A DNA stretch of 64,000 nt, taken from Terriglobia bacterium (GTDB lineage: Bacteria; Acidobacteriota; Terriglobia; 20CM-2-55-15). The notes beneath the pieces were generated by a model. The model did no database searches. It worked only from the letters and a program-made list of their open reading frames with translations, and had not been told where the DNA came from. Position numbers and translations under genes: made by a program. Positions 3,403-55,600 of the stretch are shown in pieces. The DNA is taken from assembly GCA_965198225.1 (NCBI GenBank), contig CBDAOY010000007.1, positions 990,045 to 1,054,044 of the forward strand. The letters are read 5' to 3'. Numbering within the stretch: the first letter of the stretch is position 1; every line of letters starts with the position of its first letter.

Positions 3403-6400
3403 TCAGTCTTCGCCGCCTTTCCCGGACTTCTTGGACTTATCTGACTTTTCGGATTTGTCCGATTTGCCGGACTTGCCCGACTCCTCAGACTTGTTCGATT
3501 TTCCGGACTTGTCGGACTTACCCGATTTGTCGTCATCGTCGCCTTCGATGTCAGCCTGGATGCGGATCTCTCCCGAGTCGTTGCCGATCGTTAGGTTGAC
3601 CTCGACTGGATTCGAGATACTGTCCAGATTCACGGCCTCCGCCTCGACTCGAAAGTCGAAGGCGTCCGGACCCAGCTCGCGAATCCTCAGCTCCAGCTCG
3701 ATCCCGGCGACCTCGCCTTCAAACTCAAAGATGTCCGCACCACCCTTACGGCGGAACTCCAGCGAACCTGCCGGCAGCGTCAGTTCGAAGACGCCGATGT
3801 TCAGGACAACATCTTCCTGTGACGGGTCGATACCGTCGGAAGCGACGCCCAGCGTGAAAGCTTCCCGGAGGTCGAACTCGCCGTCCGCGCCCGTTTCAAT
3901 CTCAGCGACGGCGGCGAAATCGGCAAATATCTCTGGCTGCGTGTCGCGGATGGTGATCTCCACAGTGTCGTCGACGCAGTCGGAGCGAGAGTTGCAGGCC
4001 CGGAAGGCCGCCGAAACAATGGTATCCGCTCCCACCGACGGTGCGAGGAACGTTGCGCTGGCTCCCGACGTCTCGAAGACGCCGTCGCTGTCTGTGTCCC
4101 ATTCAAGAGTCAGGAACGACACATCGCCCCCTTCCGCGTGGGTAACAGTCCCGTTGAGCGCAATCGACTCTCCTTCGTCGACCTCGTACGGCCCCCCGGC
4201 ATCCGCCGTGATACCGGCGAGATCCTCGTCGCCGAACGTGTCCCCGGGAGCTACTGCTGCTATTTCGTTGCCGTCGGAGTCAACCACCCGAAGTGCAACG
4301 TTGCCCAGATTCTCGACCAGGAACTGTCCCAGCGGGGACTCGGTGACCTTGCCGATCCCGCCCGTCGGGATCGACACGAAGGTGTCAGCGCCGAAGCCGA
4401 CCTCGACTGGCCCACGGAGGACCTCTAAGGTCAGGGACCCGCACAGGAACTTCACGGCATCGTTCTGGTCCAGGTCCACTCCCTGGCCGCACGCCACGAT
4501 GTGCGCCTTTTCGGTCCCGCCCCTGGCGTTGGCGAACAACCCGTTTCCGAACGCGTCCCAAACCGTCACGTGCTGGTCCGCCCGGATCATTATGAAACCG
4601 GAACTAATCCCGTCGCTGAAATCGTCAGAAAAGGTCTGATCGGTGTCCACCTGGTCGATGATCCCGTCGCCGTCCCGGTCTTGCGGACCGATGGCCGTGA
4701 CGCGGCCCCCCACCCCAACGATGGCGCCGACCACCTTGTTCGAAACCGTCCCGTTTTCGTCCACCACCTCGATGACCTGAACGACGGACTCACTGGCCAC
4801 GTAGACCTTCGTCCCGTCCGGACTCACTGTGACGTCACTACCGAACGCCCCCGGCACTGCCGGGACGACGACGTCCTTGACGTTCGTGTCGATAACCGCG
4901 ACTCCAAACGGTCCCATCGCAACGTAGACGAGATGGCCATGGCCGTCTACGGGCTGCGGTGTCACGGCCAGATCGGACGGTACACCTCCAACGCTGATGT
5001 CCTTGACCTTCATGCCGTACTCACTGGTGTTCCTGTCAGCGCCGATGACGGAGACGGTCTTCGCGTTGGCAAAGGTATTCCCCACATAGGCCCACTGACC
5101 GTCGGGCGTCACGAGTACAGGACTGGGCTGGGTACCGACAACGATGTCGAGGGCCTCGGAGGTCTCGGTGTCGATCCGCGTGACCTTTTTCTGTTCGCGC
5201 CGGGTGGCGTAGACCTGAGTGCCGTCCGGGTGCACCGCCACACCGTCGAAGTTTTCCGCTGCTTTACCGGAATGTAAGACGGTCAGACCATGGGTCTCAG
5301 TGTCCATCACGTAGATGTCCGACCTGTTGCCACCCTGGTTGTCATTTTTGTCCTCGTGGACCACGACGAAGAGCTTCGTTCCGTCGGGGCTCACGACCAG
5401 TGCTTCGGGACCTGGTCCAACGACGTCCTCAACGGGGATAGGGACCTTGTGCACCTGTTTGGTGGCCGTGTCGAAGACCACAACGTTTTGGAGGTTGTTA
5501 AGGGAGTCCCGCTCGAGCCCATAGACTTCTGCCCCGTCTGGACGGACTGCGACGGCACCTGGCGCGCGATCAGTCAGGCCCGGCACAAGAGCTCCCGGCA
5601 CCGTTTCGGTGAGCAGGCAGTCATTGGCGGTGTCGATGATGCGGCCGTCGCCGGTATAGGCAAGCGGCCCGCCACCGCCGGTGCACGAAAGGGTGATCTT
5701 CGCGACGAACGCGTCGTTTCCGATTCCAGCGTTTGGCTGCAGCGTATTCCCCTCCTGCGGGAAGTTGGCGGATCCCGTTGTGCCGGCGACATAGACCTCA
5801 CCGAACGGGTTGACCGCGATACCGGAGCCCCTGTCGGCTCCGCTTCCTCCAAGGTAGGTGGAATACACGAGGTCTGTCCCGGAAAGGTTGAACTTGCTGA
5901 TGAAGGCATCGCAGAGCGTGCCATCGTGCAAGTGGGCTACGGGGTCCTCGGGTAGAGGGTCGACGAGTGGGAAACCGGTCATCGGGGCAGTCGTCGAGCA
6001 GCCCTGCCCGGTCACGTAAACGCCCGAGGGGTCTGCCGCGACAGCGTATCCGTAGTCGTCTCCCACGCCGCCCAGGAACGTGGAATACGTGAGATCCGCA
6101 CAGTTGTTGTACTGGACCTGTCCGATCGGGCAGCTCACGAAGGAGGAGTTGCCCGCGGACAGTGCCGCCACAAACACATCGTAAGTCCCACCGCCATGTG
6201 TCTCCTGGTAGGTGCCCGGAAAGCCGAAATTGCTGGAGGAGACAGGGAAGTCCATCGAAATGGTCTCTCCTGTGACCACGATTCCCCACGGACTGAAGGA
6301 TATGCCTCGCGCCAGGTCCCAGCTGGAGCCGCCCAGGTAGGTGGCATACTCCAGACGAGCTATCCCCTGGTTGTTTGTGCCCAGTTCGGCCAGAAAGGCG

Positions 6401-8422: not shown

Positions 8423-9748
8423 TCAATTCTTCCAACTGTCGGCCCACAAAGGCAGGCGCAGCCTGGCCGCACAGCCTTGCCCCTCGCCCCGGTTCTCCAG
8501 TGTCAGGGTACCCTGATGCGCTTCTGCGATCTGTCGGCTCAAAACCAGCCCGATTCCCGAGCCGCCCTTCTTGGTGGTGAAGAAGGGGACGAACAGGTTG
8601 GAGGTGTTCGGCAGGCCCGGGCCTTCGTCTTCAACCCAGATGTGCAGGTGGCCGCCGGAGCGACTCCACCCCGTTCGCACATCACCTCCAGTTTCGAGAG
8701 ACGCGTCGACGGCATTCCGGACCAGGTTGATGAGGAGCTGCTCGATCTGTCCGCCGTCGGCTTCGATCGTGATCGGCGGACCTGGTATCAGGTTGACCGG
8801 CAGGCGCGTCTCCATTCCGACGACTCGACGTACCAGGGTGTCCACATCGACCTCTTCGGGTTTCGGTTGAGGTAGGCGTGCGAGCTTGGAATAGGACTCG
8901 ACGAACTGGATCAGGGAAGCGGATCGGGACGAGATCACCGAGAGACCGTGTTGGACGTCTTCCTCCCAGTCCGCCGGCCGCTGATCGCGCCCGAGCAGGC
9001 TCATGAGACTGCTCGCGATCGAGCTGATCGGTGTCAGGGAGTTGTTCAACTCGTGACCCAGAACGCGCACGATCCTCTGCCAGGTTCGCCTTTCCTCCTC
9101 GCGGAGCGTCCGGCTGAGATCGGACAGAACCAGCAGCTGGTGGGGAAGTCCACCCTGGCGAAAATTTGTCCGGCGGATCTCCCACCGGCCCCCGCCGCCC
9201 GGGAAACCGAACTCGACCAGCCGCGGCGTTTTGCCCTCCAGGCAATGTGCCAGACCCAGTTCGGCGGCGTTCGCGCCGAGCAGGCGTTCCCATGGTCTGT
9301 TCAGGAGGCGTTCGCCGGCACGGTTGACCAGCCGTAGCTTCTGGCCCTCGTCGAAGGAGAGTATCGCGACGTCGATCTCCTCCATGATCTTCTGCAAGAG
9401 CGCGGTTGCCTCGAGCGCGTCCATTCGCTGCCACCGGAGCGTGTCGGCGAGCGCGTTGATTTCTCGCGTCACATCTCCCAGCGCGTCGTCAATTCGGGCA
9501 CTGCTGCCACGGATCGAGTAGTCCCCCTCACGGAGCCCCGCGAGCAGGTTGGAAAGGGTCTGAAGGGGGAAGACCACTTTCTGCCTGGCGCCGAACGCCG
9601 CCCCTAACCAGACCACGAGGATCAACACCGACAGCGTCCACTGGACTTTCGCCGTGTAATCACTGCTCCAGAGGATAATCAGGGAGATGAGCGAGCCGGG
9701 GACCCCGGCGGTGAAGGCGATCCAGAATATGCGCTCTTCGTGTCGCAT
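8423..9748 (-). CDS. Sensor histidine kinase (2 TM, HisKA H-box GHELNNSLTPI, HATPase_c)
   Basis: 441 aa; TM helices, HELNNSL phospho-acceptor, G-boxes GGSGIGL; adjacent to NtrC-family regulator. Confidence 0.85.
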   Translation of the reverse strand: MRHEERIFWIAFTAGVPGSLISLIILWSSDYTAKVQWTLSVLILVVWLGAAFGARQKVVFPLQTLSNLLAGLREGDYSIRGSSARIDDALGDVTREINALADTLRWQRMDALEATALLQKIMEEIDVAILSFDEGQKLRLVNRAGERLLNRPWERLLGANAAELGLAHCLEGKTPRLVEFGFPGGGGRWEIRRTNFRQGGLPHQLLVLSDLSRTLREEERRTWQRIVRVLGHELNNSLTPISSIASSLMSLLGRDQRPADWEEDVQHGLSVISSRSASLIQFVESYSKLARLPQPKPEEVDVDTLVRRVVGMETRLPVNLIPGPPITIEADGGQIEQLLINLVRNAVDASLETGGDVRTGWSRSGGHLHIWVEDEGPGLPNTSNLFVPFFTTKKGGSGIGLVLSRQIAEAHQGTLTLENRGEGQGCAARLRLPLWADSWKN

Positions 9749-10172
9749 GGCTCGTTTTAGTTACAAGTAGGCCGTTGTCCGTTATTGTGGCAAATGACTC
9801 GTAGCCGTAAGCTGATCGCTGATGGCCAACTGACCGCCGGCCGGCTGCAGGCCATAGCTATCACCGGCCGCATCGCCGCCACGTGCCACAACAACGGCCT
9901 ACGGATAACGACCTACATCACTCCCACCAACTCATCCTGGCCGGGGACCCGGCGGTGAAGGCAGTCCAGAATATGTAATCGTCGTGTCGCATGGTCCGTT
10001 TCGTTACAAGTAGGCCGTTATCCGTAGGCCGTTATTGTGGTAAATGACTCGTGGCCGGAAGCTGATCGCTGATGGCCGACTTACCCGCCGGCCGGCGGCA
10101 GTCTGGCCACGAGCTATCATCGACCGCTTAGCTGGGACGTGCCACAACAACGGCCTACGGATAACGGCCTAC
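9697..10172. repeat. Tandem duplication (2 x ~235 bp, ~85% id) covering the 5' end/start codon of the kinase gene plus upstream region; contains REP-like GGCCGTTATCCGTAGGCC motifs
   Basis: 9697-9918 vs 9941-10172 align, including a degenerate second copy of the ATG region (catggctcg vs catggtccg). Confidence 0.6.
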
Positions 10173-10246
10173 GGCCGCGTCAGCGGCCCAACGGCCTACG
10201 GATAACGACTCACGGCCGCGCCAGCGGCCCAACGGCCTACGCTCAA

Positions 10247-16436: not shown

Positions 16437-16589
16437 TGAGATACTCCTAGGAACTCGTGCAATAAGGTGCGTCTTAATCAATCATCAAGCTCTTACGCCG
16501 CGGACGGGCGATCCGTTACGTCCGGAGGGCCTATTTAAAAGAAGTTAACAACATTCGCGACCGAATTCCACTGCCCCGGGGGTTTCTCC

Positions 16590-17387
16590 CTACAGGCCAC
16601 TGGACCGGCGCAGCCGGATCGCTCCGTTCACTGTCTTGAGGCGGAGATCCCGTCCGCCGTTTCCGATCGTCCCGTTCAGCCGTCGGCTTCCGAAGCGTCC
16701 CGACACGGTCATCGGGAAATCGCTGGAAATTCCGCCGTTCAGAGTTTCGGCCCGGACGTCTGCGTTGGTGTTGTCTGGGAGTTCAACCGTGATGCGACCG
16801 TTGACGGTTTCGAAAGTCAGGTCGTCCTGCCAGTCGCTCCGTCCCATCGAAACATCGATCGATCCGTTCACGGTCTTTGCCTGAACCAGCCCGGTGGCCG
16901 ATACCTCGACCTGGCCGTTTACGGTGTAGGCCTCGACGTCACCGTCGATCGAGTTGGCCTCGACACCGCCGTTCACGTTGCGTCCGATGAAACGTACACC
17001 CGCCGGAACCCGGACCGTGAAGTCCACTTCCACATCGTTGTCGTGCGTGTTCATGCGGCCGTCTGTGCCGGGTCTGCAATCGTTGGCTCGATCAGAGTTC
17101 CGACTCGGGTATACCGCGCAGATCGTGACGCCGTCGTCGTGCTCTATCGTCTCGATCTGGACAGAGTCGACGTCGCTACGGCGCGAGCTCTTGTTTGCGA
17201 CGACCTGCACCTGATTGCCCGATGCGGATGACGCTTCGACCTTACCGTTGATACCTTTGATTTCGATCGCTTTGCCGGCTGCGATCGTTCCTTCCCATTC
17301 GAAGCGTTCCTGTGCGAACGCGGATGGAATGCCGATGGTGGTGGCCATTCCCAGGACCAGGGCGGTTCGAGTCAGTGTCTGGTACAT
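16590..17387 (-). CDS. DUF4097-like putative adhesin / beta-strand repeat protein, secreted
   Basis: Signal peptide MYQTLTRTALVLGMATTIGIPSAFA after AAGGAGAG RBS; repeated VNG.I.V motif. Confidence 0.7.
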   Translation of the reverse strand: MYQTLTRTALVLGMATTIGIPSAFAQERFEWEGTIAAGKAIEIKGINGKVEASSASGNQVQVVANKSSRRSDVDSVQIETIEHDDGVTICAVYPSRNSDRANDCRPGTDGRMNTHDNDVEVDFTVRVPAGVRFIGRNVNGGVEANSIDGDVEAYTVNGQVEVSATGLVQAKTVNGSIDVSMGRSDWQDDLTFETVNGRITVELPDNTNADVRAETLNGGISSDFPMTVSGRFGSRRLNGTIGNGGRDLRLKTVNGAIRLRRSSGL

Positions 17388-23055: not shown

Positions 23056-23129
23056 CCAGGCCAGCTTCCAACCCAAGAAGGGGGCGGGCGTGACGCGCCC
23101 GCTTCTCCATCAAAGTTTTTGGGATCTTT

Positions 23130-23250
23130 CGGCAACATAGCGGTCTAATTGCAAACCGCGATATTGACTAATCCGCATTGCATGTTGTTCATTGGAGATT
23201 GCTTCACTTCAAATTTTCGGGAACAAATCTCCCGGGAGTTACCGGCCTTA
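23130..23250. repeat. AT-rich element related to 37195-37484 (CATTGCATGTTGTTCATTGGAGATTGCTTCACTTCAAATTT)
   Basis: ~75% identity over ~70 bp with 37270-37345; stands out against GC-rich background. Confidence 0.45.
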
Positions 23251-23301
23251 GCGCTGATCCCGGAACTCCAAGTTTTTCGCTTCACTGGTACAGGCCACTA
23301 G

Positions 23302-25413: not shown

Positions 25414-25688
25414 CTAGTGACCTGTAACAGTGCTATCGGTACCAGCGTTCGGCGGAACGGCGTCGGATTCTAGGAGTGACGCCCGAGCCAATGCTGTTTC
25501 ATTGCGAGGGCGTTACGACACCGAAGACGGCGCCGTTCCGACGAACCCTTCGGGCCGATGGGGGTTGCGGGCGATCTCTTTGTCGGAAGCCGTCACCGAT
25601 GAAAGAGCATCGCTTTCCGTCTCCCTCCTCGACCTCGCCCGCAAGACCCATCGGCGATGGTGCCGATAGCACTGTTACAGGCCACTAG
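25414..25688. mobile_element. MITE copy 1 (267 bp, ~27-bp imperfect TIRs TGACCTGTAACAGTGCTATCGG..., flanked by CTAG/CTAG target duplication)
   Basis: Left TIR 25418- , right TIR ending 25684; near-identical copy at 34709-34975; internal long stem potential; non-coding. Confidence 0.75.
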
Positions 25689-25760
25689 CACGCTGCCGGC
25701 TGCCTTGATCGAAAGCGTGCTGCGTGATAGTTTTCATCCCGTACGTTACGGAGAATTCCC

Positions 25761-27671
25761 ATGAAAAAGAACCGTCTTCCGGTGCGTTTGCTTACCGTTG
25801 CCGCAGCCACGCTGGCGGTGATCTCTTGCAGCGGCGTTTCAGCCGACAACGAGTTTTTCGGTCGCGTGACACCGCCTGAAGGACAGGTGATGCGCTACAT
25901 TTCGGGATCCGAGCCGGAATCGCTGGATCCGCCGGTATCTTCCGGGCAGCCCGAGGCTCGCCTCTACATGGCGCTGTTCGAGGGGTTGACCGACTACAAC
26001 CCGAAGACCGCCGGTCCGATCCCGGGTGTTGCGGAGAGCTGGGAAGCCAATGCGGACAACTCCGAGTTTGTCTTCCACCTCCGTGAAGATGCCCGTTGGA
26101 GCAATGGCGAACCGGTCAGAGCCGGGGATTTCGTCTACTCCTGGCGTCGTGCGCTATCGCCGGAGCTGGCGTCCAGAAATGCCTACCTCGCCTACGACAT
26201 CAAGTACGCGCAGGCCTACAACGAGGGCGGCGTGTTCGTCCTCGATCCTGAGACCGGGGAATTTCTCCGCGCGGTGGAGACGGCCCAGGGACCGTCCGAT
26301 TCGGAAGAGAACGATGAGTCCACCGGGGACACAGCCTTTCATGTCTTCATCCAGGGACCCACCCGTCTGACGCTCCCCGGGGACGAGGAGAGTCGTCAGG
26401 CGATGTTCGACGAAGATACTGAACTGGCGGGCCGGATGGCTGGGAAGGAATTCGTTCCCGTCCAGGCCGAGAGCATCGGCATCGAAGCCGTCGACGACCA
26501 TACCTTCCGCGCGACTCTGGCTCGACCGGCGCCGTACTTTGTCGGCCTCGTGGCGCACCAGACCTTCATGCCGGTCCTCCAGTGGGTCGTCGAACAGTAC
26601 GGTGAGGCCTGGACAAAGCCGGAAAACATCGTCACGAACGGCGCTTTCAAGCTGGAATCCCGGAAGCCGTACAACGAGATCGTCATGGTTCGGGACCCGA
26701 TGTACTGGGACGCGGACGCAGTGCGTCTCGACAAGCTCATCTTCTACCCGATGGAAGACGCAACGACGATGATGAATCTCTACAAGGCCGGAGAGGTCGA
26801 TGCTGTCTTCAATCATGTCGTTCCGGTGGCCTGGCTGGATCTGATCCGCCCCCTCGCCGACTACATGGATGCGCCCGAGAACGCGGTCGGGTACTACATG
26901 TTCAACGTGACGCGACCTCCTATGGACGACATCCGGGTGCGAAAGGCCTTCAACGCGTCCATCGACAAAGAGGCCCTGGCCCAGTACCGCCGGGTGACCA
27001 AGCCGCTGACTGCCTTCAGCCCCGAGGGAATCTACCCGGGTTACCCCCAGCCGAAGGGAGACCCGTTCGATCGGGAGCGGGCACGGAAGTGGCTCGCCGA
27101 GGCGGGCTACGTCGATGCGGCGGGCAACTACGATCCTTCCACCTTTCCGATTGAAGAGGTCGAACTGACATACAACACTTCGGAAAGCAACCGGCAGGTG
27201 GCGGAGTTCATCCAGGCGCAATGGAAGCAGAACCTGGGCTTGACGGTTCCGCTCAAGAACATGGAATGGAAGACATTCCTGGTTGTACGGGCGGCGCTGG
27301 ACTACAAGGGCATCGGGCGTGCCGGCTGGGTCGGCGACTACATGGATCCGTTTACTTTCCTCAATATCTTCTACACCGCCGGAGGGGACAACGGCACTGG
27401 CTGGTGGGACCCGGAATACGTGCGTTTGCTCGACGAGGCGAACACGACGCTGGATCCGGCGCGACGTTACGAACTGCTCGCTGAAGCCGAAGCATACATG
27501 CTCGCGGCACAGCCGATCATCCCGTTCGAGACCAACGCGACAAACTGGATGAAGAAGCCCTACGTGAAAGGTATGTATCCGAACCCGGGGACCCTCCATG
27601 CCTGGAAGTTCGTCTACATCGAACATGATCCGGCGAAATGGGACAGCGGCGTGCCGGATATGAGTCAGTAG
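25761..27671 (+). CDS. oppA: Peptide ABC transporter substrate-binding lipoprotein (SBP family 5, OppA/DppA-like)
   Basis: 636 aa; lipobox VISC signal; family-5 SBP architecture; heads oppBCDF. Confidence 0.9.
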   Translation: MKKNRLPVRLLTVAAATLAVISCSGVSADNEFFGRVTPPEGQVMRYISGSEPESLDPPVSSGQPEARLYMALFEGLTDYNPKTAGPIPGVAESWEANADNSEFVFHLREDARWSNGEPVRAGDFVYSWRRALSPELASRNAYLAYDIKYAQAYNEGGVFVLDPETGEFLRAVETAQGPSDSEENDESTGDTAFHVFIQGPTRLTLPGDEESRQAMFDEDTELAGRMAGKEFVPVQAESIGIEAVDDHTFRATLARPAPYFVGLVAHQTFMPVLQWVVEQYGEAWTKPENIVTNGAFKLESRKPYNEIVMVRDPMYWDADAVRLDKLIFYPMEDATTMMNLYKAGEVDAVFNHVVPVAWLDLIRPLADYMDAPENAVGYYMFNVTRPPMDDIRVRKAFNASIDKEALAQYRRVTKPLTAFSPEGIYPGYPQPKGDPFDRERARKWLAEAGYVDAAGNYDPSTFPIEEVELTYNTSESNRQVAEFIQAQWKQNLGLTVPLKNMEWKTFLVVRAALDYKGIGRAGWVGDYMDPFTFLNIFYTAGGDNGTGWWDPEYVRLLDEANTTLDPARRYELLAEAEAYMLAAQPIIPFETNATNWMKKPYVKGMYPNPGTLHAWKFVYIEHDPAKWDSGVPDMSQ

Positions 27672-27791
27672 CGTGAGGCCCAATGTCCAAAGTCCGAGGT
27701 TCAAAGTCCGAGGTCCAAAGTCCAAGGTCGAATGTCTGGAGATCAGTTAATGACGTCGGACAGTGGACTTCGGACCGTGGACTGATTCCCG

Positions 27792-28712
27792 ATGTTGCAT
27801 TTCATAATCCGCCGACTGATGGTGACGCTGCCGATGGTCCTGGTTGTCGTGTCGCTGACCTGGGCTTTGATCCGGCTGGCTCCCGGCAACTTCTACACGG
27901 GCGAGAAGCCGATTCCCCCAGCGATCGAAGCAAACCTCCGCGCCAAGTACGGGCTCGACCAGCCTTGGTACGTCCAGTACGGGAAGATGATCAGCAACAC
28001 GCTGAGGGGGGACTTCGGAAACTCGTTGCGATACCAGGGACAGTCGGTGAACGAGATCCTGGCTGCCTCGCTGCCGGTGTCGGCGGGGATTGGCTTCGCG
28101 GCATACCTGCTGGCCCTTCTCATCGGCGTGCTCGTCGGCACGGTCTCGGCGGTCAAACAGAATTCCAGCATGGACTACACGTCGATGGGCTTTGCCATGG
28201 TCGGCATCTCTGTGCCCAACTTCGTTCTCGGACCGATTCTGGTGCTGGCGTTCGCACTGACGCTGTTCTGGCTGCCTCCGGCCCGGTGGGAAGGCTTTTT
28301 CAGTGTCCATACCATTCTGCCCGTGATCACGCTGTCCGCAGTCTACATGGCCTACATCGCCCGGCTTGCGAGATCGGGAATGCTCGAGGTACTCCGATCC
28401 AACTACATCCGAACCGCGCGGGCCAAGGGTTTGGATGAGAAAACCGTCGTTGTGCGGCATGGCCTGAGGGGTGGACTGCTGCCCGTCGTTTCGTTCTCGG
28501 GTCCGGCTCTGGCCCTGCTCATATCGGGCACCGTAGTCGTCGAGCGCATTTTCGCGCTGCCGGGATTGGGAAACTATTTCATCAACGCCAACCTCAACCG
28601 CGATGAACCGTTGATCATCGGAATCGTCGCGTTTATGTCGATCTCGATCCTGATCTTCAATCTGCTGGTCGACATCGCGTATGGATTCCTGGACCCCAGG
28701 GTGAGGTATTGA
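27792..28712 (+). CDS. oppB: Peptide ABC transporter permease
   Basis: 306 aa; 6 TM; EAA-like loop IRTARAKGL. Confidence 0.9.
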   Translation: MLHFIIRRLMVTLPMVLVVVSLTWALIRLAPGNFYTGEKPIPPAIEANLRAKYGLDQPWYVQYGKMISNTLRGDFGNSLRYQGQSVNEILAASLPVSAGIGFAAYLLALLIGVLVGTVSAVKQNSSMDYTSMGFAMVGISVPNFVLGPILVLAFALTLFWLPPARWEGFFSVHTILPVITLSAVYMAYIARLARSGMLEVLRSNYIRTARAKGLDEKTVVVRHGLRGGLLPVVSFSGPALALLISGTVVVERIFALPGLGNYFINANLNRDEPLIIGIVAFMSISILIFNLLVDIAYGFLDPRVRY

Positions 28713-28898
28713 AGAAGTTATGCGTAGGCCGTTATCCGTTGTCGGAAGAGGAGCTACCAACTCACAACGACGTACCAACGGCCTACGGCCTACTGAACCG
28801 AGGAAGTTATGAGTAGTCAGCTGTCAGTAGTCAGTTTTGGGAAAGGGATGGCGTACCGCCCAACGGCCTACGGACAACGGCTTACGACTTATTGACGA
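28713..28898. repeat. Intra-operon REP-like repeats (GGCCGTTATCCGT / CCAACGGCCTACGG and AGTAGTCAG units)
   Basis: Same motifs as in 9760-10240 and 8370-8420. Confidence 0.5.
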
Positions 28899-29837
28899 AT
28901 GTCCCAGGTTACCGAAACCGAAGTTGTGGCCGGAACGTCCTTGTGGCGCGACGCATGGCGCCGCCTGCTTCGCAACAGGTTGGCCGTCATCGGCATGACT
29001 TTCGTCGCCTTGATCGTTCTCGCGTCGATCGTCGGCCCACCGATCATCGAGGCGACAACCGGTTTCACGTACGACTACATACCGGCTGATTCCTCGCAGA
29101 TTCGATCGTTCCCGCCATTCACGGCGCCTGACGGTTCCTTTTCCCTGACTCACCCGATGGGAACCGACGAGGCGGGGCGGGACATCCTCGCGAGAGTTCT
29201 GTTGGGCGGGCGAATCTCTCTCATGGTCGGAAGCATTTCGACGATCGTGTCCCTGCTCATCGGTGTGACATACGGGGCGACGGCCGGTTACGTGGGCGGC
29301 CGGGTCGATGACGGGATGATGCGCATCGTCGACGTGCTCTACGCGATTCCATACATGATGGTTGTGATCGTCCTGCTGGCTTTCTTCGGAGGTCAGTCGC
29401 CGCTGGGTCAGTTGTTTCTGTTGTTCTTCGCTCTCGGCGCCGTGTCGTGGCTGACGATGGCCCGAATCGTGCGGGGACAGGTGATCTCGTTGAAGAACCA
29501 GGAATTCGTCCTCGCCGCGCGCGCCGGGGGCGTGTCGACTCCAAAGATCATCTTCAGGCATCTCGTTCCGAACACGCTCGGACCGGTCGTCGTCTACGCG
29601 ACGTTAACGATCCCGTCCGTCATGCTGCTCGAGGCGTTCCTGTCTTTCCTGGGTCTCGGTGTCCAGGCTCCGCTCGCCTCGTGGGGGAGTCTCGCCGCGG
29701 ACGGCATCCGAAACATCGCCGTCTTCCCGTGGCAGCTGATCTTTCCCGGAGTGACGATGGCCGCGACGCTGTTCTCGTTGAACTTCATGGGTGACGGGCT
29801 CCGGGACGCCTTGGATCCGCAGATGCGAAAGATGTAA
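28899..29837 (+). CDS. oppC: Peptide ABC transporter permease
   Basis: 312 aa; DppC/OppC-type N-terminal domain and permease core. Confidence 0.9.
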   Translation: MSQVTETEVVAGTSLWRDAWRRLLRNRLAVIGMTFVALIVLASIVGPPIIEATTGFTYDYIPADSSQIRSFPPFTAPDGSFSLTHPMGTDEAGRDILARVLLGGRISLMVGSISTIVSLLIGVTYGATAGYVGGRVDDGMMRIVDVLYAIPYMMVVIVLLAFFGGQSPLGQLFLLFFALGAVSWLTMARIVRGQVISLKNQEFVLAARAGGVSTPKIIFRHLVPNTLGPVVVYATLTIPSVMLLEAFLSFLGLGVQAPLASWGSLAADGIRNIAVFPWQLIFPGVTMAATLFSLNFMGDGLRDALDPQMRKM

Positions 29838-29999
29838 GCACGGATTACACGGATGGACTTACACATACAGGAGGAAGACAAGCCACGGATTGCACGGATT
29901 ACACGGACAGGAAGAAGCCCGTGGTCTGCATTCCGAAAAGACTACTCCTAATCCGTTAAATCCGTGTAATCCGTGGCTTAGCAGTCTGAACATCAACGT
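29838..29999. repeat. Intra-operon repeat cluster: CACGGATTACACGGA x3 direct + 1 inverted (TCCGTGTAATCCGTGG)
   Basis: Visible in the 160-bp gap between oppC and oppD. Confidence 0.5.
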
Positions 30000-31034
30000 A
30001 TGAACGAGGCTACGCTACTTTCGGTCCGATCACTAAGGACCTACTTCGAAACCGAGGACGGTACCGTCAGGGCGGTCGACGGTATCGATTTCGACCTCGC
30101 CTGCGGACGGACGCTCGGTATCGTCGGAGAATCCGGGTCCGGGAAGTCGGTCACCAACCTTTCGATCATGCGCCTGATCCCGTCGCCACCAGGTCGCATC
30201 GCTTCGGGCGAGATCGACTTCGACGGCCGGGATCTCCTGTCCCTGTCTGAGGAGGACATGCGCGGCGTTCGCGGCGATCGCATCGCGATGATCTTCCAGG
30301 ACCCTATGACTTCGTTGAACCCGTTCATGCGGATCTCGGACCAGCTCATGGAAGTGACCCGCCTCCACCTCGGGCACGGCAGGGCCGAGGCGCTCGAACA
30401 CGCGGTCGGAATGTTGGAGCTGGTCGGTATTCCGGATGCGCGCGAACGCGCGGGGAACTATCCACACGAGTTTTCCGGAGGAATGCGCCAACGCGTGATG
30501 ATAGCGATGGCATTATCGTGCGAGCCGAAACTGCTCATCGCCGACGAGCCAACGACGGCTCTGGACGTCACGATTCAGGCGCAGATTCTCGAACTGATCC
30601 GAAAACTGAAACGGGAGACAGGCACGAGCGTCATCCTGATCACCCACGACCTCGGCGTTGTAGCCGGTATGACCGACGACATCGTGGTCATGTACGCCGG
30701 CAAGGTCTTTGAACAGGCGCCGACACGCAGGCTGTTTGCCAATCCGGCCAATCCGTACACCGAAGGGTTGTTGCGCTCGGTCCCTGGACCGTCGTCGAAC
30801 GGCGGGGAGCTGTACCAGATTCCTGGTCTGCCTCCCGACCTCACGCGGCTCGGACCCGGCTGTCCGTTCGCGCCCCGATGCGACAGGGCGCAAGAGATCT
30901 GCAACAGCGAATTCCCGCCCTTCGTGGAACTCGGGCCCGACCATCACTCGCTGTGTCACTTCGCCGCCGAGGTTTACGCCGCGAACGGCGGGAGACAATA
31001 TGACGCCGGCTCGCCGTCCGAAACCGGTGATTGA
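30000..31034 (+). CDS. oppD: Peptide ABC transporter ATP-binding protein
   Basis: 344 aa; [18 protein letters not shown]-terminal oligopeptide ATPase extension. Confidence 0.9.
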
Positions 31035-32122
31035 GAGACATGGCTGAAAGCGCAACAGGACCGGACGTGGCCCACAACGGAACGCTTCTCTCGATCCGGG
31101 ATCTCAAGGTGCATTTCGATCTGGGCGGCGGAACCCTGTGGGATAGGGCCACAGGGGGGAGTCCGGTCCGGCGCGTCGTCAAGGCTGTCGACGGTGTGAC
31201 CATCGACATCCGCGCCGGCGAGACCCTGGGCCTGGTCGGAGAATCCGGATGCGGCAAGTCCACCCTCGGGCGTGCGCTGCTACGTTTGGAAGAGCCGACT
31301 GCCGGCGCGGTCGTTTTTCGCGGAGTGGACCTCCGCGGCCTGGCGCCGGCCGCGATGCGCGAGCAGCGGCGTCATCTGCAGATGATTTTCCAGGATCCGT
31401 ACGCGTCCCTGAACCCGCGCATGACGGTCGGGCAGATCGTCTCGGAGCCGATCGAGACCTTCGGACTGGCATCCGGCGCGGAAAAGGCCGGCCGGGTGAA
31501 TGAGCTGATGGAAACGGTCGGGCTCAGCCAGAGGTTCGTCAAGCGGTACCCGCACGAGTTCTCCGGCGGACAGCAACAGCGCATCGGCATCGCGCGCGCA
31601 CTGGCGGCCAATCCTGATTTCATTGTCGCCGACGAGCCCATATCGGCCCTGGACGTGTCGATCCAGGCGCAGATCATCAACTTGATCGAGCGGTTGCGCC
31701 GGGAACGAAACCTGACATACCTGTTCATCTCACACGATCTCCGCGCTATCCGGCACACTGCCGATCGCGTCGCGGTGATGTATCTGGGAAAGCTCGTCGA
31801 GCTGGGTGACGCCGAGACTCTCTACAACGACCCGCTCATGCCGTACACGAAGGCGCTGATCTCGGCGGTTCCCATTCCCGACCCCGAACGGGAGTTGGCG
31901 CGCGAGCGTGTCGTGCTGGAAGGTGACGTTCCGTCCCCCATCAACCCGCCCTCTGGCTGTCGCTTCCACACCCGCTGTCCTTATGCCATCCACGCTTGCA
32001 GGGAGAACGTGCCTGAGCTCGTCGAAATCAAGCCGGACCACATGGCCGCGTGCATCCGGATCAGTTCCGAGCAGCCCGACATCGACGGGGTTGCGCCTGA
32101 TTCGGCCCCGGGACTTGGTTGA
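31031..32122 (+). CDS. oppF: Peptide ABC transporter ATP-binding protein
   Basis: 363 aa; [24 protein letters not shown]; ATGA overlap with oppD. Confidence 0.9.
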
Positions 32123-32130
32123 GAAATTCC

Positions 32131-32400
32131 TGTCTGAAAAGTTTTGGGTAAGTAGACACCCGAGGACAGGGCTATACCCCTGTCCCCCTCACATTGGCTC
32201 TTTCACGGACTTTTCGCGTAGCGACCGGAAAACCCTCTGTGCCTCCGCGCCTTTGCGGTGAGATCGCCGCTCTGAAGAGTTCTGCGTAAGCAGACACCCG
32301 GGGACAGGGCTATACCCCTGTCCCCCTCACATTGGCTCTCTCACGGACATCCCGCGTAACGACAGGAAAACCCTCCGTGCCTCCGCGCCTCCGTGGTTAG
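32131..32400. repeat. Tandem direct repeat, 2 x ~138 bp, filling the convergent intergenic gap; each unit has hairpin GGACAGGGCTATACCCCTGTCC
   Basis: Unit 1 ~32131-32268, unit 2 ~32269-32400, ~90% identical; third inverted copy at 22340-22440. Confidence 0.7.
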
Positions 32401-33713
32401 TCTTCTTTCATCACCAGTGTTTTTGCGTGTTTCGAGCGGAACAGGTAGGCCACGTAGCCGAGGGTGAGCGTGGCGATTCCGGTCAGAGTCGAGATCGGTT
32501 GGGACTGGATGCTCCACACGGTGATCCAGAGGGCAAAGATCGTGAAGATCAGCGGCGGGATGGGGTAGCCGATACAGATGCGGTGAGTGGAGCGGCCGGA
32601 TCGGCGGAGGCGGAACAGGCTGATCACCGTCAGCGCCGCAAAAATGTTCAGAGTGAAACCGATGTAGATCAGCAACGCGGTGAACGACGACGTCAGCGCA
32701 ATCAGCACCGCAAGGGTTGCCTGGAAGAACACGGCGAAACTGGGGACATTCCGATGATTGAGTCTGCCGAAACGCTCGGGAAGAAACCCGTCCCGGGCCA
32801 TGGCCTCGGCGACGCGCGGGCCGGTCAGGAGCATGGCGCTGATCGGAGCGATCAGGGTCACGGCGATCAAGGTCGACACGAGCCGCCCGCCCTCGGGTCC
32901 CCAGACGGTCCTCGCGACGAGGTAGCCGACTTCTTCGACGCCGGAGAGTTCCTCGAGTCCTACGGATCGCAAAAAGGAAAGGTTGACGAGAAAATACAGG
33001 AGCGTGACGCCGCCCGCGCCCCATAGCAAAGAGCGAGGCAGGTTGCGCTCCGGCCGATCGATCTCCGTCCCGATGTATGCCGCAGCATTCCAACCGCTGT
33101 AGGCGAACGAGATGAACACAAGAACGACCGCGAACGACGACGAGGTCCAGAATCCGGGATTGAACGTCAGGGGGGACCCCGACCTGACGTCCGGTCCGGC
33201 GAAGAGGATGCCGAACACGAACGCCAGGAGCAGGAGCACCTTGATGGCGATCATGATGGTCTGTACCCGGCTTCCGAGTTTCAGATCATATGCGTGGAGC
33301 AGGGCGAGCAACAGAATCGTTCCCGCCGCCATCCCCCGGACGGGCCAGTTCGGCAAAATGGTGCCGACGTAGAGATGCATGGCCATGGCCGATGCTGCGA
33401 TCGGGGCGGCAAACCCGACGATCAGGGAAACCCAGCCGGAAATGAAACCTGCGGCCGGGTGGAGAAGCCGGCTCAGATAATGGTATTCGCCGCCCGAGGC
33501 CGGGAAGTGTGCACCGATCTCCCCGTAACAGAGGGCGCCGCACAGGGCGATTGCGCCGCCGACCAGCCACCCGAGGAGAATGTCGCCGCCTTCGGCACCC
33601 ATGGACACCATCAACCCGGTCGTCGTGAAGATGCCGGTGCCGATCATGCTCGAGACGACGATCGCCGAAGCCGGTATCGCGCCCAGAACACGGCGGTTTT
33701 CGGTGTCTCTCAC
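32397..33713 (-). CDS. APC-family amino acid permease
   Basis: 438 aa; 12 TM, APC signature. Confidence 0.85.
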   Translation of the reverse strand: MRDTENRRVLGAIPASAIVVSSMIGTGIFTTTGLMVSMGAEGGDILLGWLVGGAIALCGALCYGEIGAHFPASGGEYHYLSRLLHPAAGFISGWVSLIVGFAAPIAASAMAMHLYVGTILPNWPVRGMAAGTILLLALLHAYDLKLGSRVQTIMIAIKVLLLLAFVFGILFAGPDVRSGSPLTFNPGFWTSSSFAVVLVFISFAYSGWNAAAYIGTEIDRPERNLPRSLLWGAGGVTLLYFLVNLSFLRSVGLEELSGVEEVGYLVARTVWGPEGGRLVSTLIAVTLIAPISAMLLTGPRVAEAMARDGFLPERFGRLNHRNVPSFAVFFQATLAVLIALTSSFTALLIYIGFTLNIFAALTVISLFRLRRSGRSTHRICIGYPIPPLIFTIFALWITVWSIQSQPISTLTGIATLTLGYVAYLFRSKHAKTLVMKED

Positions 33714-33783
33714 GTCCAGGGAATCCTACCAGACTTGCCACGCGGGCCAGATGAAATGATGTAATACGAGTGAGGTCTGTTCG

Positions 33784-34683
33784 ATGCGTGTCTGTTACGG
33801 TCCCGGCTACACCATCCCTCTGCCGCACACCCATCCGTTTCCGATGGGCAAGTACGAGGCGCTCTACCGGATTCTGATCGAAGAGGGCTTGATCGTTCCC
33901 GCCGACGCGCACGATCCCGGCGAAGCGGATTGGAGCGACCTGGCCTTGGTGCATACCTACCAGTACCTCGATACGCTCCGCCGAGGCAGTCTCGACAGGG
34001 ATGCTGAACGGCGTCTGGGTCTGCCGTTTTCCGAAGTTCTTCTACGCCGCTCGCGCCTGGCCGTCCAGGGTACGATCGACGCCGGACAGTTTGCCCTCGA
34101 GGAAGGAATCGCAGCCAACCTGGCCGGCGGCACCCACCACGCGTTTCCGGGCCACGGTGAAGGCTACTGCCTGCTGAACGACGTCGCCGTCGCCGTGCGG
34201 GTCTTGAAACGCTCGAAGGCAATCGAGAACACCCTGGTGGTGGATCTGGACGTACATCACGGGAACGGCAGTGCCAGCATCTTTGCCGAGGACCCATCGA
34301 CCTTCACGTTGTCGATCCACGGCGCGAAGAATTACCCGTGGGTGAAACCTCCCTCCTCGATCGATGTGGCGCTTCCGGACGGGACCGGAGACGAAGAATA
34401 TGTCACAGCGCTCGTCAGCCACCTGGATACCGCGGTATCAGAGTCCTGCCCGGACCTGATCTTCTACCTGGCCGGCGTTGACGCCGCGGCCGGAGATCGT
34501 TTCGGCCGGCTCTCGCTCAGTCCGGAAGGCCTGCGTCGGAGGGACCGCTACGTTCTGGATGCTGCGAGACGTCACGGCATTCCGATCACGCTCCTGCTCT
34601 CGGGGGGGTATGCGAAAACGCCGCAGATGACTGCCGAGTTGCATGCCATCGTTCATCGTGAACGGTGCGCCGTCTACGGGTGA
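33784..34683 (+). CDS. Histone deacetylase-family protein (AcuC/HDAC-like)
   Basis: 299 aa; HHGNG and D..H zinc-site motifs. Confidence 0.85.
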   Translation: MRVCYGPGYTIPLPHTHPFPMGKYEALYRILIEEGLIVPADAHDPGEADWSDLALVHTYQYLDTLRRGSLDRDAERRLGLPFSEVLLRRSRLAVQGTIDAGQFALEEGIAANLAGGTHHAFPGHGEGYCLLNDVAVAVRVLKRSKAIENTLVVDLDVHHGNGSASIFAEDPSTFTLSIHGAKNYPWVKPPSSIDVALPDGTGDEEYVTALVSHLDTAVSESCPDLIFYLAGVDAAAGDRFGRLSLSPEGLRRRDRYVLDAARRHGIPITLLLSGGYAKTPQMTAELHAIVHRERCAVYG

Positions 34684-34704
34684 CCCAGACCGCTGCGGAG
34701 CATC

Positions 34705-34979
34705 CTAGTGACCTGTAACAGTGCTATCGGTACCAGCGTTCGGCGGAACGGCGTCGGATTCTAGGAGTGACGCTCGAGCCAATGCTGTTTCATTGCGAGG
34801 GCGTTGCGACACCGAAGACGGCGCCGTTCCGCCGAACCCTTCGGGCCGATGGGGGTTGCGGGCGATCTCTTTGTCGGAAGCCGTCACCGATGAAAGAGCA
34901 TCGCTTTCCGTCTCCCTCCTCGACCTCGCCCGCAAGACCCATCGGCGATGGTGCCGATAGCACTGCTACAGGCCACTAG
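34705..34979. mobile_element. MITE copy 2 (267 bp), same orientation as copy 1, CTAG target duplications
   Basis: ~98% identical to 25418-25684 (4-5 substitutions); CTAG on both flanks. Confidence 0.75.
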
Positions 34980-37194: not shown

Positions 37195-37484
37195 GTGTGG
37201 GTGCGCTCTATATGAGCGCACATCGTTTCGGCTCAAAGAATGTGCGGTCATAGACCGCAGCTACACCTATCGCAAATTGCGATATTTGAAAGAATCCACA
37301 TTGCAGGTTGCTCATTGGAGATTGTTTCATTTTAGATTTCCGACCAATAAGAAATCGAGCAATTTGCAATCTCCAAATTTCCAATGCGGAATCGTCCAAT
37401 GACCAATCTGCAATAGCTGTCAGACGAGGTCCCAGCCACCTCCCTCGATCGAGTAGAATGTGCGGTCATAGAGCGCACCTACAC
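37195..37484. repeat. ~290-bp AT-rich element bounded by ~29-bp inverted repeats (GTGTGGGTGCGCTCTATATGAGCGCACAT / ATGTGCGGTCATAGAGCGCACCTACAC), MITE-like
   Basis: Terminal IRs plus internal extra IR-R copy at 37240-37270; AT-rich core related to 23130-23250. Confidence 0.55.
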
Positions 37485-38305: not shown

Positions 38306-38360
38306 GGTCTTCTTCCTTCGAGGCAGAATCGCCGCATTCTCCTCTAATCGTGACGAGTGA

Positions 38361-45254: not shown

Positions 45255-45915
45255 TTATCCCGGGCGTCGACGCATCTCTTCCCGGGTGATGAATCCATCA
45301 TCGTCCGCGTCGAGGCGGTCGAAGGCCTCAGTCGGTCGGGTCCACTCGTCACGAGAAACCTTGCCGTCGCCGTCTTCATCCATCTGGAGCATCGCGGCTC
45401 CCCGGCCACGTCCGCCTCTGCCCGGGCGGGAGTTCTGCATCTCTTCGAGAGTGATGAAGCCGTCGCCATCGGCGTCCATGGTCTCGAACATCTGCGCGGG
45501 ACCCGGAAACTCCTGCTGCGACACGCGTCCATCGCCATCGCTGTCGAGCCCCTGGAAACGGGCTTGAGGGTCTGCGCCTCTTCCGCCTCTATCCCGGGCG
45601 TCGCCATCTCTTCCCGAATCCATCATCGTCCGCGTCGAGGCGGTCGAAGGCCTCAGTCGGTCGGGTCCACTCGTCACGAGAAACCTTGCCGTCGCCGTCT
45701 TCATCCATCTGGAGCATCGCGGCTCCCCGGCCACGTCCGCCTCTGCCCGGGCGGGAGTTCTGCATCTCTTCGAGAGTGATGAAGCCGTCGCCATCGGCGT
45801 CCATGGTCTCGAACATCTGCGCGGGACCCGGAAACTCCTGCTGCGACACGCGTCCATCGCCATCGCTGTCGAGCCCCTGGAAACGGGCTTGAGGGTCTGC
45901 GCCTCTTCCGCCTCT
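45255..45915. repeat. Tandem duplication (334 bp + ~327 bp, near-identical) of the 3' end (including stop) of the EF-hand selenoprotein gene; upstream copy carries 7-nt + 2-nt deletions
   Basis: 45255-45588 vs 45589-45915 align almost perfectly; both end CCCGGGATA(A/G). Confidence 0.8.
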
Positions 45916-52611: not shown

Positions 52612-55600
52612 ATGCGCGTGCTCTCTTTTTCGCTGCAAGGCCTTAAAACCGGGTTATTTCTGCTATTCGCATCACTGCTGGCCGTGTCGGCGCCGATTCA
52701 GGCCAGCGCGCAGGCGAACAGCCCTCCGGCGGTGACGGGGCCAACCAGCGTCGACTACGCCGAGAACAGCGAGGAGACGGTGGCCACGTATATCGCTACG
52801 GACCCGGAGGCCGAAGCAATCGCGTGGAGCGTGTCCGGGACGGACCATGCGCTGTTTTCCATCACTGCGGGTGTCCTGGAGTTCCTGAGCCCGCCGAACT
52901 ACGAGAGGCCTATCGACGAGGGCGAAGACAACGCGTATGAGGTGGGCGTCACGGCCACGGATTCCTCCGGGGCGGCCGCCACCGTTGCGGTCACCGTGAC
53001 GGTAACAGACGTCAACGACCCGAACATCGTCCTCATCATGGCGGACGATGTCGGTTATGAGGCCTTTGGGGCATACGGTAGCGCACAGTACAGAACGCCG
53101 CGAATTGATGAGCTTGCAGCCGCGGGAGTTCGCTTCACGAACGCTTACTCAAACCCGGTATGCACCCCGAGCAGAGTTGCCTTGATGACGGGTAAGAGCA
53201 GTGTCAGGAACTATGTGGATTTCGGAGTTCTACTCCCCGGAGAATACACGATTACTGATCTCTTTAGTGGGGCCGGATACGCAACGGCCATCGCCGGAAA
53301 GTGGCAGCTTCACGGTAGTGTCGTAGGTAGTGACGTAGTGGCTGGTGTCCCTGCCGGAACCGGATTCGACACGTATTCCTTGTGGAATACAGCCAACACG
53401 GGTCGTAGTCGCTACTGGAATCCTTCCATCGAACGCGACGGTGAAATCATCGATCTGGGCAGCGAGGATTACGGGCCCGACATATTCACGAATTTCCTGC
53501 TGGAATTCATAGAGTCCAACAGAGATAAACCGTTTTTCGCCTACTACCCGATGGTGCTTCCTCATGATCCGTTCGGCTCGCCGCCGCAAGCCCAATGCGT
53601 CGATACCGCTGACGGACAGTGCAATTTCGAGGACATGGTCGCGTATCTCGATTACAACGTCGGCCGCATACGCGACAAGCTGGCGGACCTGGAGCTACTC
53701 GACAACACAATCCTCATATTCACCTCCGACAACGGAACTCACGCACGCTGATCTGATTTCAGAACTCGGGGGAGAAATGATCCATGGGGATAAGAACATG
53801 CCCAACAATGGCGGCACGCGGGTACCGCTGATAGTCAGCGTTCCAGGAGGTGAGGGGGGACGGGTGTTCGACGACCTGATCGACTTCACCGACTTTCTCC
53901 CGACTCTGGCTGATGCGGCAGGTCTTACGATTCCTGACGTCAATATGCTGGACGGCGTGAGTTTTTGGGACAGGCTTCAAGGCCGAACCGGCCAACCGCG
54001 GGAATGGATATATACCTATTACTTCCCACGTCCGTTCGCCGATAGGTTCGACAATCCGCAACGTCATCCAGAGGCGTCGTATGTCCGAGACAAGCGGTAC
54101 CAGCTCTACGGAACAGGAGAGTTCTTCGACATTTCCGTAGACCCTCACCAAGTGCATCCGTTGCCGAGTGACGATGAAGAGTCCAGCGCCGCCCGTACCA
54201 AGCTGCAAGCGGTTCTCGACTCGATGCCGGGGAGAGGTGAGGAGATTTACCCATATTTGATAGGAACTGTCCCGGACTCTGAGCCGCGCCCGCGATGGCG
54301 GCCCGTCCTGTCGAAAGCAACTGTGAACGGCGGCCAATTGACGCTCACTTACGCCGGAATTCTGGACTCAAGAGAAGCGCCTCCCGCAGATTCCTTCATT
54401 GTGAACGTTGATGGTTCCGAGCGTGCGGTCTCCACAGTTTCGATAAGCAAAACAGCGGTTACGCTTACACTCGCTTCGGCGGTTACAGTTGGCCAGACGG
54501 TGACGTTGAATTACACGCCGGGAACGAATGCGATTCAGCACGCGAACAGGCCATTCGGGCACAAAGCGGCACCCCTGGTTCGCCAAGGGGTGACGAACAA
54601 CACTGTGGACACGACGGCGCCGGCGGTGTTGTCGATCACGAGCGACGCGACGCACCCGACGAAGAACGCTTTCACGGTGACGATAACCTTTTCGGAGGAG
54701 GTGAGGGGACTCACGGCGGGGGAGATCGCGGTCACCAATGGCACGGGCTCGAACTTTGCGGGCACAGGCGCGAGCTACATGCTCGACATCGAACCCAGCG
54801 ACGATATCGAAGCCGACGTGACGGTCCGGGTTCCGGCCGATGCGGCGATGGACGCCGCGAACCTCGGCAACATCGAGGGGATCGAGACCTTCGCGGTGGA
54901 CACCCAGGCGCCGGCGGTGTTGTCGATCACGAGCGACGCGACACACCCGACGAAGGATGCTTTCAGGGTGACGATCACCTTTTCGGAGGCGGTGACGGAG
55001 CTCACGTCGCAGGATATCGCGGTCATGAACGGAGTGGGCTCGAACTTCGCGGGCACGGACGCGCGCTACACGCTCGACATCGAGCCCAGCGCCAATACCG
55101 AAGACGATGTGACGGTCCGGGTTCGGGCCAACGCGGCGGTGGACGGCGTGAACATCGGCAACGTCGAGGGGATCGAAACCTTTGCGGTGGACACCCAGGT
55201 GCCGAGGGTGTTGTCGATCACAAGCGACGCGGCGCACCCGACGAAGGATACTTTCACGGTAACGATCACCTTTTCGGAAGAGGTGACGGGGCTGACGGCG
55301 AGTGAGATCGTGGTCAGCAATGGCCGTGGCTCGAACTTCGCGGGCACGGGCGCACGCTACACGCTCGACATCGCTCCGAACGCCAACCTTGAAGCCGATG
55401 TGACGGTCCGGGTTCGAGCCAACGCGGCGGTGGACGGCGCGAACAACAGCCACGTCGACGAGGGCGAGACCTTCGCTGTGGACACGCGGGCACCGGTGTT
55501 GATGAGCGCTGCGGTGGATGGCGACACGCTGACGCTGAGCTATGGGGAGGCGCTGGGCAACCCGACACCGGAGCCGGGCGATTTCACGATGAATGTGGAG

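Follow-up and report, generated by a model that had tools for sequence, protein, structure and literature searches.

Two near-identical direct repeats lie in a 64,000-nucleotide (nt) stretch of contig CBDAOY010000007.1 from a Terriglobia bacterium, here called the window. We conclude that these repeats, copies A and B, are very probably independent insertions of a non-autonomous MITE (miniature inverted-repeat transposable element), M1A, which duplicates TA on insertion and belongs to a superfamily with a folded core; the gene block between them is, on the same reading, ancestral. The evidence comes from the structure of the copies, their target sites, the empty sites in relatives and the conserved core. 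Fetched loci are given by L numbers, and positions without an L number are those of the window.

Results

Structure of the two copies

Copies A (25414-25688) and B (34705-34979) have starts 9291 bp apart and differ at 4 of 275 nt (98.5% identity). Their similarity breaks off precisely at the outer CTAGs, and the flanks beyond are unrelated. This agrees with the first-pass annotation of the window, which had described two near-identical direct copies with CTAG on both sides. The parts of each copy are as follows.

25414-25688, + strand: MITE copy A including both CTAGs; element proper 25417-25685 (269 bp, G...C), duplicated TA at 25415-25416 and 25686-25687
34705-34979, + strand: MITE copy B including both CTAGs; element proper 34708-34976, duplicated TA at 34706-34707 and 34977-34978
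A 25417-25444, B 34708-34735, + strand: left terminal inverted repeat (TIR), pairing with the right arm (A 25658-25685); the arms co-vary between subfamilies
A 25447-25546, B 34738-34837, + strand: internal hairpin 1 (helices 1-3 of the predicted fold)
A 25546-25554, B 34837-34845, + strand: junction mini-hairpin CCC-TTCG-GGG, its second loop base variable across families (TTCG, TCCG, TGCG)
A 25554-25655, B 34845-34946, + strand: internal hairpin 2 (helices 5-7 of the predicted fold), holding the most conserved stretch, GGGGGTTGCGGGCGATCTCTTTGT
A 25658-25685, B 34949-34976, + strand: right TIR, pairing with the left arm

M1A is 269 bp long and reads 5'-GTGACCTGTAACAG...CTGTTACAGGCCAC-3', with the M1 end sequence GTGRCCTGTAACAG. 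The TIRs span ~31 nt, or 34 nt counting the CTAG; over 34 nt the arms of copy A (25414-25447 and 25655-25688) are 91% complementary and those of copy B 85-88%. The 19-nt TIR core occurs four times in the window, compared with 0.01 occurrences expected. Compared with shuffles, each of the two strands has a far better fold (z = -12.9 and -12.5), with an end stem and two internal hairpins of ~100 nt each in the predicted fold. The inverted ends and long internal self-complementarity reported earlier are thus borne out.

Each copy also contains an open reading frame (ORF) of 79 amino acids (25430-25669 and 34721-34960). Pfam searches of the element ORFs (79, 70 and 76 amino acids) gave no match, and the frame is interrupted by 1-nt insertions or deletions between subfamilies. 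Because of these frame-breaking changes we judge, as had been suspected, that the ORF is evidently not a gene. Both copies sit in co-directional spacers, 40 and 22 nt past a stop codon. The gene downstream of copy B, a guanylate cyclase of 604 amino acids, starts at ~35074 and not at the ATG at 34948 within the copy.

Insertion into the TA of CTAG

A scan of a genome collection holding one genome per species for the TIR core gave at least 76 stretches, nearly all from the Terriglobia metagenome-assembled genome (MAG) CBDAPB01. The unique full copies analysed numbered 63, a lower bound; two are those of the window and the other 61 come from fetched loci. Exactly 269 nt was the length of 54 of the 63; relative to the consensus the median copy had 4.5 mismatches, and copies occurred in both orientations.

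Since CTAG is palindromic, one copy alone cannot separate a 4-bp duplication from a TA duplication beside an element with G...C ends. The first-pass annotation had chosen the former, a 267-bp element (TGACC...GGCCA) of the IS5 group that duplicates the full 4-bp YTAR. CTAG stands on both sides of 39 of the 63 copies, IS5 is reported with CTAG direct repeats (PMC10379815), and an IS5-family element flanked by CTAG, which we call Y, occurs both in these genomes and in the species of the window (L079), all of which fits that choice. The variants decide against it. The inner base is constant in 126 of 126 ends (G on the left, C on the right), while the outer base varies 13 times with the TA intact (left-hand TTAG, ATAG and GTAG; right-hand CTAA and CTAC) and no variant is mirrored at the other end. 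A 4-bp duplication predicts matched variants and none is matched; if all four bases belonged to the flank, this pattern would arise by chance roughly once in 8000. The same one-sided outer variants are seen around Y (TTAG...CTAG, CTAG...CTAA), which implies that Y too duplicates TA only, and the TIRs of Y resemble those of M1 only weakly (p = 0.04-0.15 in an anchored end-similarity test, uncorrected for ~60 comparisons). Therefore the element is 269 bp long once the inner G and C are counted as its own, and it inserts into the TA of 5'-CTAG-3', duplicating TA in the preferred context C|TA|G. The 267-bp length and the 4-bp duplication we consider improbable.

CTAG is scarce in the window, with 24 sites against 81 expected (~3.4-fold under-represented), and seven of the 24 belong to these elements. 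Flanks that have decayed frequently read CCAG or CTGG. CTAG is here either quick to mutate or, as a landing site shared by several insertion sequence (IS) families, under counter-selection.

Empty sites and the block between the copies

MAG CBDAPB01 shares 87-93% DNA identity and the same gene order with the window organism, and nearly all of the at least 61 full copies outside the window lie in this one related MAG. The two sites could be compared with L049 and with two relatives, L081 and L082, fetched through orthologues of the histone-deacetylase-family gene (HDAC) beside copy B. Site A is empty in all three, with a single CTAC in place of CTAG-element-CTAG, and site B is empty in L081 and L082, with a single CTGC; in the last two, the spacers at both sites are ~270 nt shorter. 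The reverse case also occurs: window 38346-38356 lacks a diverged copy, of subfamily B, that is found at L021 6852-7120. Both window elements are thus genuine, independent, lineage-specific MITE insertions that post-date the split from relatives of ~90% identity. With the further copies that the TIR-core scan revealed and the lack of Pfam-recognisable coding capacity, the empty sites establish the MITE identity that had been proposed. Elsewhere, chance matches were all that a scan of the plasmid collection for the element gave, and a 19-mer match within a coding region of L025, a Bacteroidetes MAG, was due to chance.

Between the copies lie the following genes, which are not part of the element (window ORFs, with Pfam run on the identical genes of L077, L078 and L081).

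25761-34683, mixed strands: bracketed block
25761-27671, + strand: oppA
27792-28712, + strand: oppB
28899-29837, + strand: oppC
30000-31034, + strand: oppD
31031-32122, + strand: oppF
32397-33713, - strand: APC permease
33784-34683, + strand: histone-deacetylase-family gene (HDAC)

Direct copies of 98.5% identity around a functionally coherent block might suggest one composite mobile unit, or a block imported or rearranged by the copies. We regard this as extremely improbable. L081 and L082 keep the full synteny S9 peptidase-oppABCDF-APC permease-HDAC-guanylate cyclase with both sites empty; each copy is set in unrelated flanks with a TA/CTAG duplication of its own, and a DDE-type composite would use the outer ends and leave a single duplication across the whole. 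Because it is syntenic in relatives that carry neither copy, the 9-kb opp/permease/HDAC block is ancestral, was not carried by the copies and is not a composite transposon.

The first-pass annotation had also suggested that the copies bracket the block for deletion or inversion. Deletion is possible in principle, and would leave ACCACTAG-one copy-CTAGGGTCC with the loss of 9291 bp; none was seen. Inversion is impossible between direct repeats. The strain comparison that had been proposed finds the block present both in the conspecific assembly L078 (99.8-100% identity), where it is retained between the two copies, and in the relatives with both sites empty, where gene order is the same. The idea of a block bracketed for rearrangement finds no support. 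Copy B is present in L077, L079 and L080, the other assemblies that cover that region.

Other mobile elements distinguish the conspecific assemblies (99.8-100% identity), which differ by IS insertions at L077 558-2275 and 3704-5017 and at L079 2497-5055 and 10754-12077. Among these are an IS1182-like element in oppA, with the 4-bp duplication GTGC at window 27420-27423, and an IS4-like element between oppB and oppC. A cluster of IS3-like and IS5-like elements in L079 cuts off oppF at window 31639. Strain-level IS activity is high.

A superfamily with a conserved folded core

In MAG CBDAPB01 there are also a diverged subfamily, M1B, and at least 11 copies of a second family, M2 (270 bp, ends GCAGCCCGTGGCAGAAG), which has the same flanks as M1. 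A scan of JGI metagenomes with the most conserved internal motif returned 31 loci, most of them a third family, M3 (ends GTACTCACTTTCATAAATACGG), with 3-bp TNA duplications in CTNAG that are perfect in 8 of 17. Further end types were found at L106, L109 and L114. All end types align over the entire core (alignments A2 and A3), and together these elements form a superfamily with at least five end types (M1-M5), along with a divergent variant of M2, in which the homologous core is conserved and the ends are not.

Folding of the alignments with RNAalifold gave the same Y-shaped structure for A2 and A3, with compensatory changes in 53 of 91 and 56 of 84 pairs, respectively. When the end stem was masked, the internal hairpins alone retained 55 pairs, of which 30 had changed on both sides, and were 96.2% paired; none of 500 shuffles did as well, and slid controls were 33-47% paired. 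The shared fold is predicted to consist of an end stem, two hairpins of ~100 nt and a small UNCG-type hairpin, and it is kept by compensatory substitutions. G-U pairs outnumbered A-C pairs (74 vs 24), and in 15 of 16 sequences it was the + strand that folded better.

A covariance model of the right half scored every copy at 110-127 bits and left halves, on the opposite strand, at ~40-46 bits; in the window it gave minus-strand matches at 25449-25558 and 34740-34849 (E ~1e-5 to 1e-6). Because the right-half model detects the left half on the opposite strand, the element is an inverted dimer of one end-plus-hairpin unit. Single-hairpin forms exist. Two copies, at L009 2293-2596 and L068 5400-5707, measure 304-308 nt and carry an extra small hairpin in one arm with a run of 9-13 C; this run differs between two assemblies of one locus and is probably a sequencing artefact.

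The Rfam search of the element returned only chance-level matches, far below gathering scores, and no published description of this core or family was found. The family is previously undescribed; as a kind, the element is ordinary. The first-pass annotation had set its MITE reading against an element with no further copies and no TIR-matching IS, or one kept as a conserved structured RNA. What we find is mixed: no TIR-matching IS came to light and a conserved structure is present, but further copies do exist.

Could the Y-shaped core itself be the functional part, as a structured RNA or as a module selected at the protein or DNA level, with the ends a mere vehicle? The element would then be a non-coding gene or cis-regulator that moves, and not just selfish DNA. 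Its conservation over five unrelated end types, the 30 internal pairs with compensatory changes, the strand asymmetry in G-U pairing and folding, and a junction loop that varies only at the N of UNCG are all consistent with this. We nevertheless consider it rather unlikely, as the element has no orientation bias relative to its neighbours, no Rfam family and no promoter or terminator signal; moreover, few independent lineages were sampled, and the hairpins may simply help short elements to join their ends, or be a by-product of the inverted-dimer origin.

A related suggestion, to which we give a low probability, is that a selected, portable, non-coding Y-shaped core (a structured RNA, or a DNA scaffold that helps synapsis or binds a host factor) has repeatedly swapped ends and so parasitises several unrelated transposase families (IS630, IS1182, IS5), the swaps being enabled by the end-to-end landing of these families at one rare CTAG site. 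If true, selection would act on the cargo rather than the ends, the reverse of the usual MITE pattern.

The strict tetranucleotide context, strong hairpins and strand-asymmetric G-U pairs would also suit a relic of a single-strand transposon of IS200/IS605 or REPIN type, moved at CTAG by a Y1 (HUH) transposase with no true duplication. This is very improbable: the long inverted-repeat ends co-vary as a pair, both orientations are inserted symmetrically with outer-base variation equal on the two sides, and every resident element with the same target is of DDE type. Nor was a Y1 or RAYT gene noticed among the multi-copy repeat families and CTAG-flanked TIR pairs of the fetched loci, in which no search was aimed at such genes.

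Candidates for the mobilising transposase

On the preferred reading, M1A as a TA-duplicating MITE, a transposase encoded elsewhere in the genome would bind the ~31-nt inverted ends, excise the element and insert it at a new site. The same genomes hold several multi-copy IS elements: element X (1547 bp, IS1182 family), element Y (~815 bp, IS5 family, IS427/IS1031-like, with DUF4096 and DDE_Tnp_1 domains and a frameshift), IS630-family elements (DDE_3), and IS256- and IS3-like elements. Those of the IS630 family, like X and Y, have (C)TA(G) flanks, and all of these often lie directly against MITE ends with which they share the TA. The shared CTAG target would put different element families end to end and could thereby offer the core a route to new ends.

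In the end-similarity test, M1 ends did not match X (p = 0.4-0.96) and M2 ends were closest to X (p = 0.002-0.02), both values being uncorrected for the same ~60 comparisons. Homologues of the IS630-like transposase and their loci, including a four-copy IS630-family element, had CTAG flanks and ends other than those of M1. When all fetched sequence was searched generically for inverted ends flanked by TA, nothing but other families turned up, and exact M1 ends were absent from the JGI metagenomes. The parental IS5-family element with matching TIRs that had been anticipated was not found, and the TIRs of the resident IS5-family Y appear to be different. The mobiliser is presumably a DDE transposase of a CTAG-targeting family, for which IS630 and the IS5/IS1182 clan are about equally good candidates, because no IS with M1 ends was found.

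Several apparent parents proved to be something else. 'Lone' TIR matches taken as IS ends were all shortened copies or solo ends, and widely spaced TIR pairs were neighbouring MITEs. The 1704-bp pair with M2 ends in L020 and L068 was an M2 copy that an IS256-like insertion had split. When the MITE was compared with IS1182 transposases at the protein level, 84 of 200 shuffles scored as well, so the similarity is not significant. A 537-bp stretch at L065 2049-2585, considered as a deletion intermediate carrying IS1182 transposase fragments, is a possible artefact and was not relied on. It lies within L065 1464-2650, a mosaic in which a 40-nt flank plus MITE is interleaved, in collinear order, with a decayed IS1182-like element, with ~10% deletions and the flank duplicated; this may be a real recombinant or intermediate, or an artefact of long-read assembly or polishing.

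Two further observations concern the resident elements. At L008 5095-5204 there is an element of ~110 bp with X ends and CTAG flanks, a miniature derivative of X, which shows that X also spawns MITEs. In IS630-family elements at L109 165-1320 and in L117, L119, L120 and L121 1097-2254, the transposase frame reaches the very end of the element, and in L109 the stop codon TAG is made of the duplicated TA plus the flanking G.

Evidence that weighs against the proposed account

A number of results count against our account of M1A as a mobilised, TA-duplicating MITE with a conserved fold. Searches of ~0.9 Mb of fetched loci, of plasmids and of JGI metagenomes yielded no autonomous element that has M1 ends, and mobilisation in trans is thus something that we infer rather than show. 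The best match to the M1 ends was an IS630-family end (p = 0.003-0.056, uncorrected), a weak similarity that is a hint only, and the 3-bp TNA duplication of M3 is not an IS630 trait. The empty sites in all three filled/empty comparisons read CTAC, CTGC and CGAG, none of them exact CTAG, so that either the window lineage differed there before insertion or the flanks were altered later. For the fold, covariation is drawn from only about five lineages, and non-selective processes could also keep the arms of a palindrome alike.

The copies, in their co-directional spacers, are probably co-transcribed as long double-stranded RNA stems, which could be cut by RNase III or hinder read-through. Orientation relative to flanking genes showed no bias (22 co-oriented vs 15 anti), however, and scans for promoters and terminators inside the element gave no motif, which makes such an effect speculative.

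Remnants and solo ends

Two shorter matches to the element lie upstream of copy A.

23283-23301, + strand: solo right-end remnant cactGGTACAGGCCACTAG, abutting the ATG of the S9 prolyl-oligopeptidase gene
16589-16603, + strand: probably another solo-end remnant, CTACAGGCCACTGG, which agrees with the right end of copy B at 13 of 14 positions

They share the 11-mer TACAGGCCACT (16591-16601 and 23289-23299), for which 0.01 occurrences are expected. At the orthologous place L049 has a full 268-nt copy (5398-5665) in the same flanking sequences as the remnant at 23283-23301, where a deletion appears to join two CACT motifs. The latter is a genuine solo-end remnant. Of the two remnants suggested earlier, the one given as 23288-23301 therefore stands; the other is probable, and its true position is 16591-16601 rather than 16583-16595. 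MAG CBDAPB01 contains many solo ends and shortened copies. The remnants show that copies are lost through internal deletion as well.

Next to the first remnant, ~165 nt of window 23107-23282 are missing from the orthologous L049 spacer. This stretch, bounded by the direct repeat AAGTTTTT, probably represents a further small insertion; 23170-23219, which is part of it, recurs with 84% identity at 37293-37342.

Other repeats in the window

At 37237-37484 the palindrome GTGCGGTCATAGACCGC is found in two 30-nt repeats that lie 218 nt apart. TA-flanked MAG elements of 274 bp (L071 3773-4050) and 1412 bp (L045 4822-6237) have inverted ends made of the same motif, GGTGCGGTCTATGACCGC, and the conspecific L079 has an IS4-like element inserted at window ~37346. 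A cluster of direct and inverted repeats based on GGCCGTTATCCGTAGGCC occupies 9690-10230, with arms 97% complementary and a period of ~250 nt; a related 41-mer lies at 28861-28901, between oppB and oppC. Long tandem repeats at 45291-45915 (325 nt x2, 100%), 54605-55486 (291 nt x3, 81-86%) and 57408-58804 (~735 nt x2, 74-80%) are unrelated to the MITE and probably code for protein domains that are repeated. Rfam matched nothing in the window except a tRNA gene at 3162-3248 (- strand, 57.9 bits).

Discussion

For annotation, these results mean that the two spacers contain mobile DNA whose ORFs should not be called genes, that the start of the cyclase should be placed at ~35074, and that the opp/permease/HDAC block is not a mobile island. 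The insertions differ between relatives of ~90% identity, and the copies are useful as strain markers. MITEs of Acidobacteriota have barely been described. What is unusual here is a folded core conserved over five end types, and the competition of three IS families for a single tetranucleotide that is rare. The system offers a tractable case for asking how non-autonomous elements change transposase hosts, and whether internal structure aids the movement of very short elements.

Comparison with known systems

A type II MITE is one with no internal similarity to known IS elements (PMC10969869), and M1 is such a MITE from an uncultivated Acidobacteriota lineage. Like the prokaryotic type II MITEs Correia/CREE of Neisseria, RUP, Nezha and ERIC, it is small, non-coding and high-copy, with TIRs and a short duplication, which is TA as in Correia- or RUP-type elements, and it is likewise mostly intergenic and folds into long stems. 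It differs from elements of the Correia and RUP type in three respects: what is conserved from family to family in M1-M5 is the core and not the ends, the fold of M1 is a predicted three-way Y with two internal hairpins and not one long hairpin, and M1 is built as an inverted dimer of an end-plus-hairpin unit.

With IS630 and Tc1-mariner elements, M1 shares the TA duplication and the strong preference for 5'-CTAG-3'; IS630 is cited in PMC2170065 (from Tenzen and Ohtsubo 1991) as inserting at the TA in CTAG. In related acidobacterial assemblies every IS630-family member has CTAG flanks, and the ends of these members likewise start with GTG. None with M1 ends was found, however, the end similarity is marginal, and the sister family M3 duplicates TNA.

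IS5 gives CTAG repeats (PMC10379815), but M1 departs from IS5 proper in that it does not make the typical 4-bp YTAR duplication. Compared with the resident elements Y (IS5) and X (IS1182), M1 has the same TA-in-CTAG flanks, and both are multi-copy in the same genomes; the ends of M2 resemble those of X while those of M1 do not, and M1 ends match Y weakly. The TNA duplication of M3, in turn, fits the habits of the IS5 clan as given in the ISfinder group descriptions.

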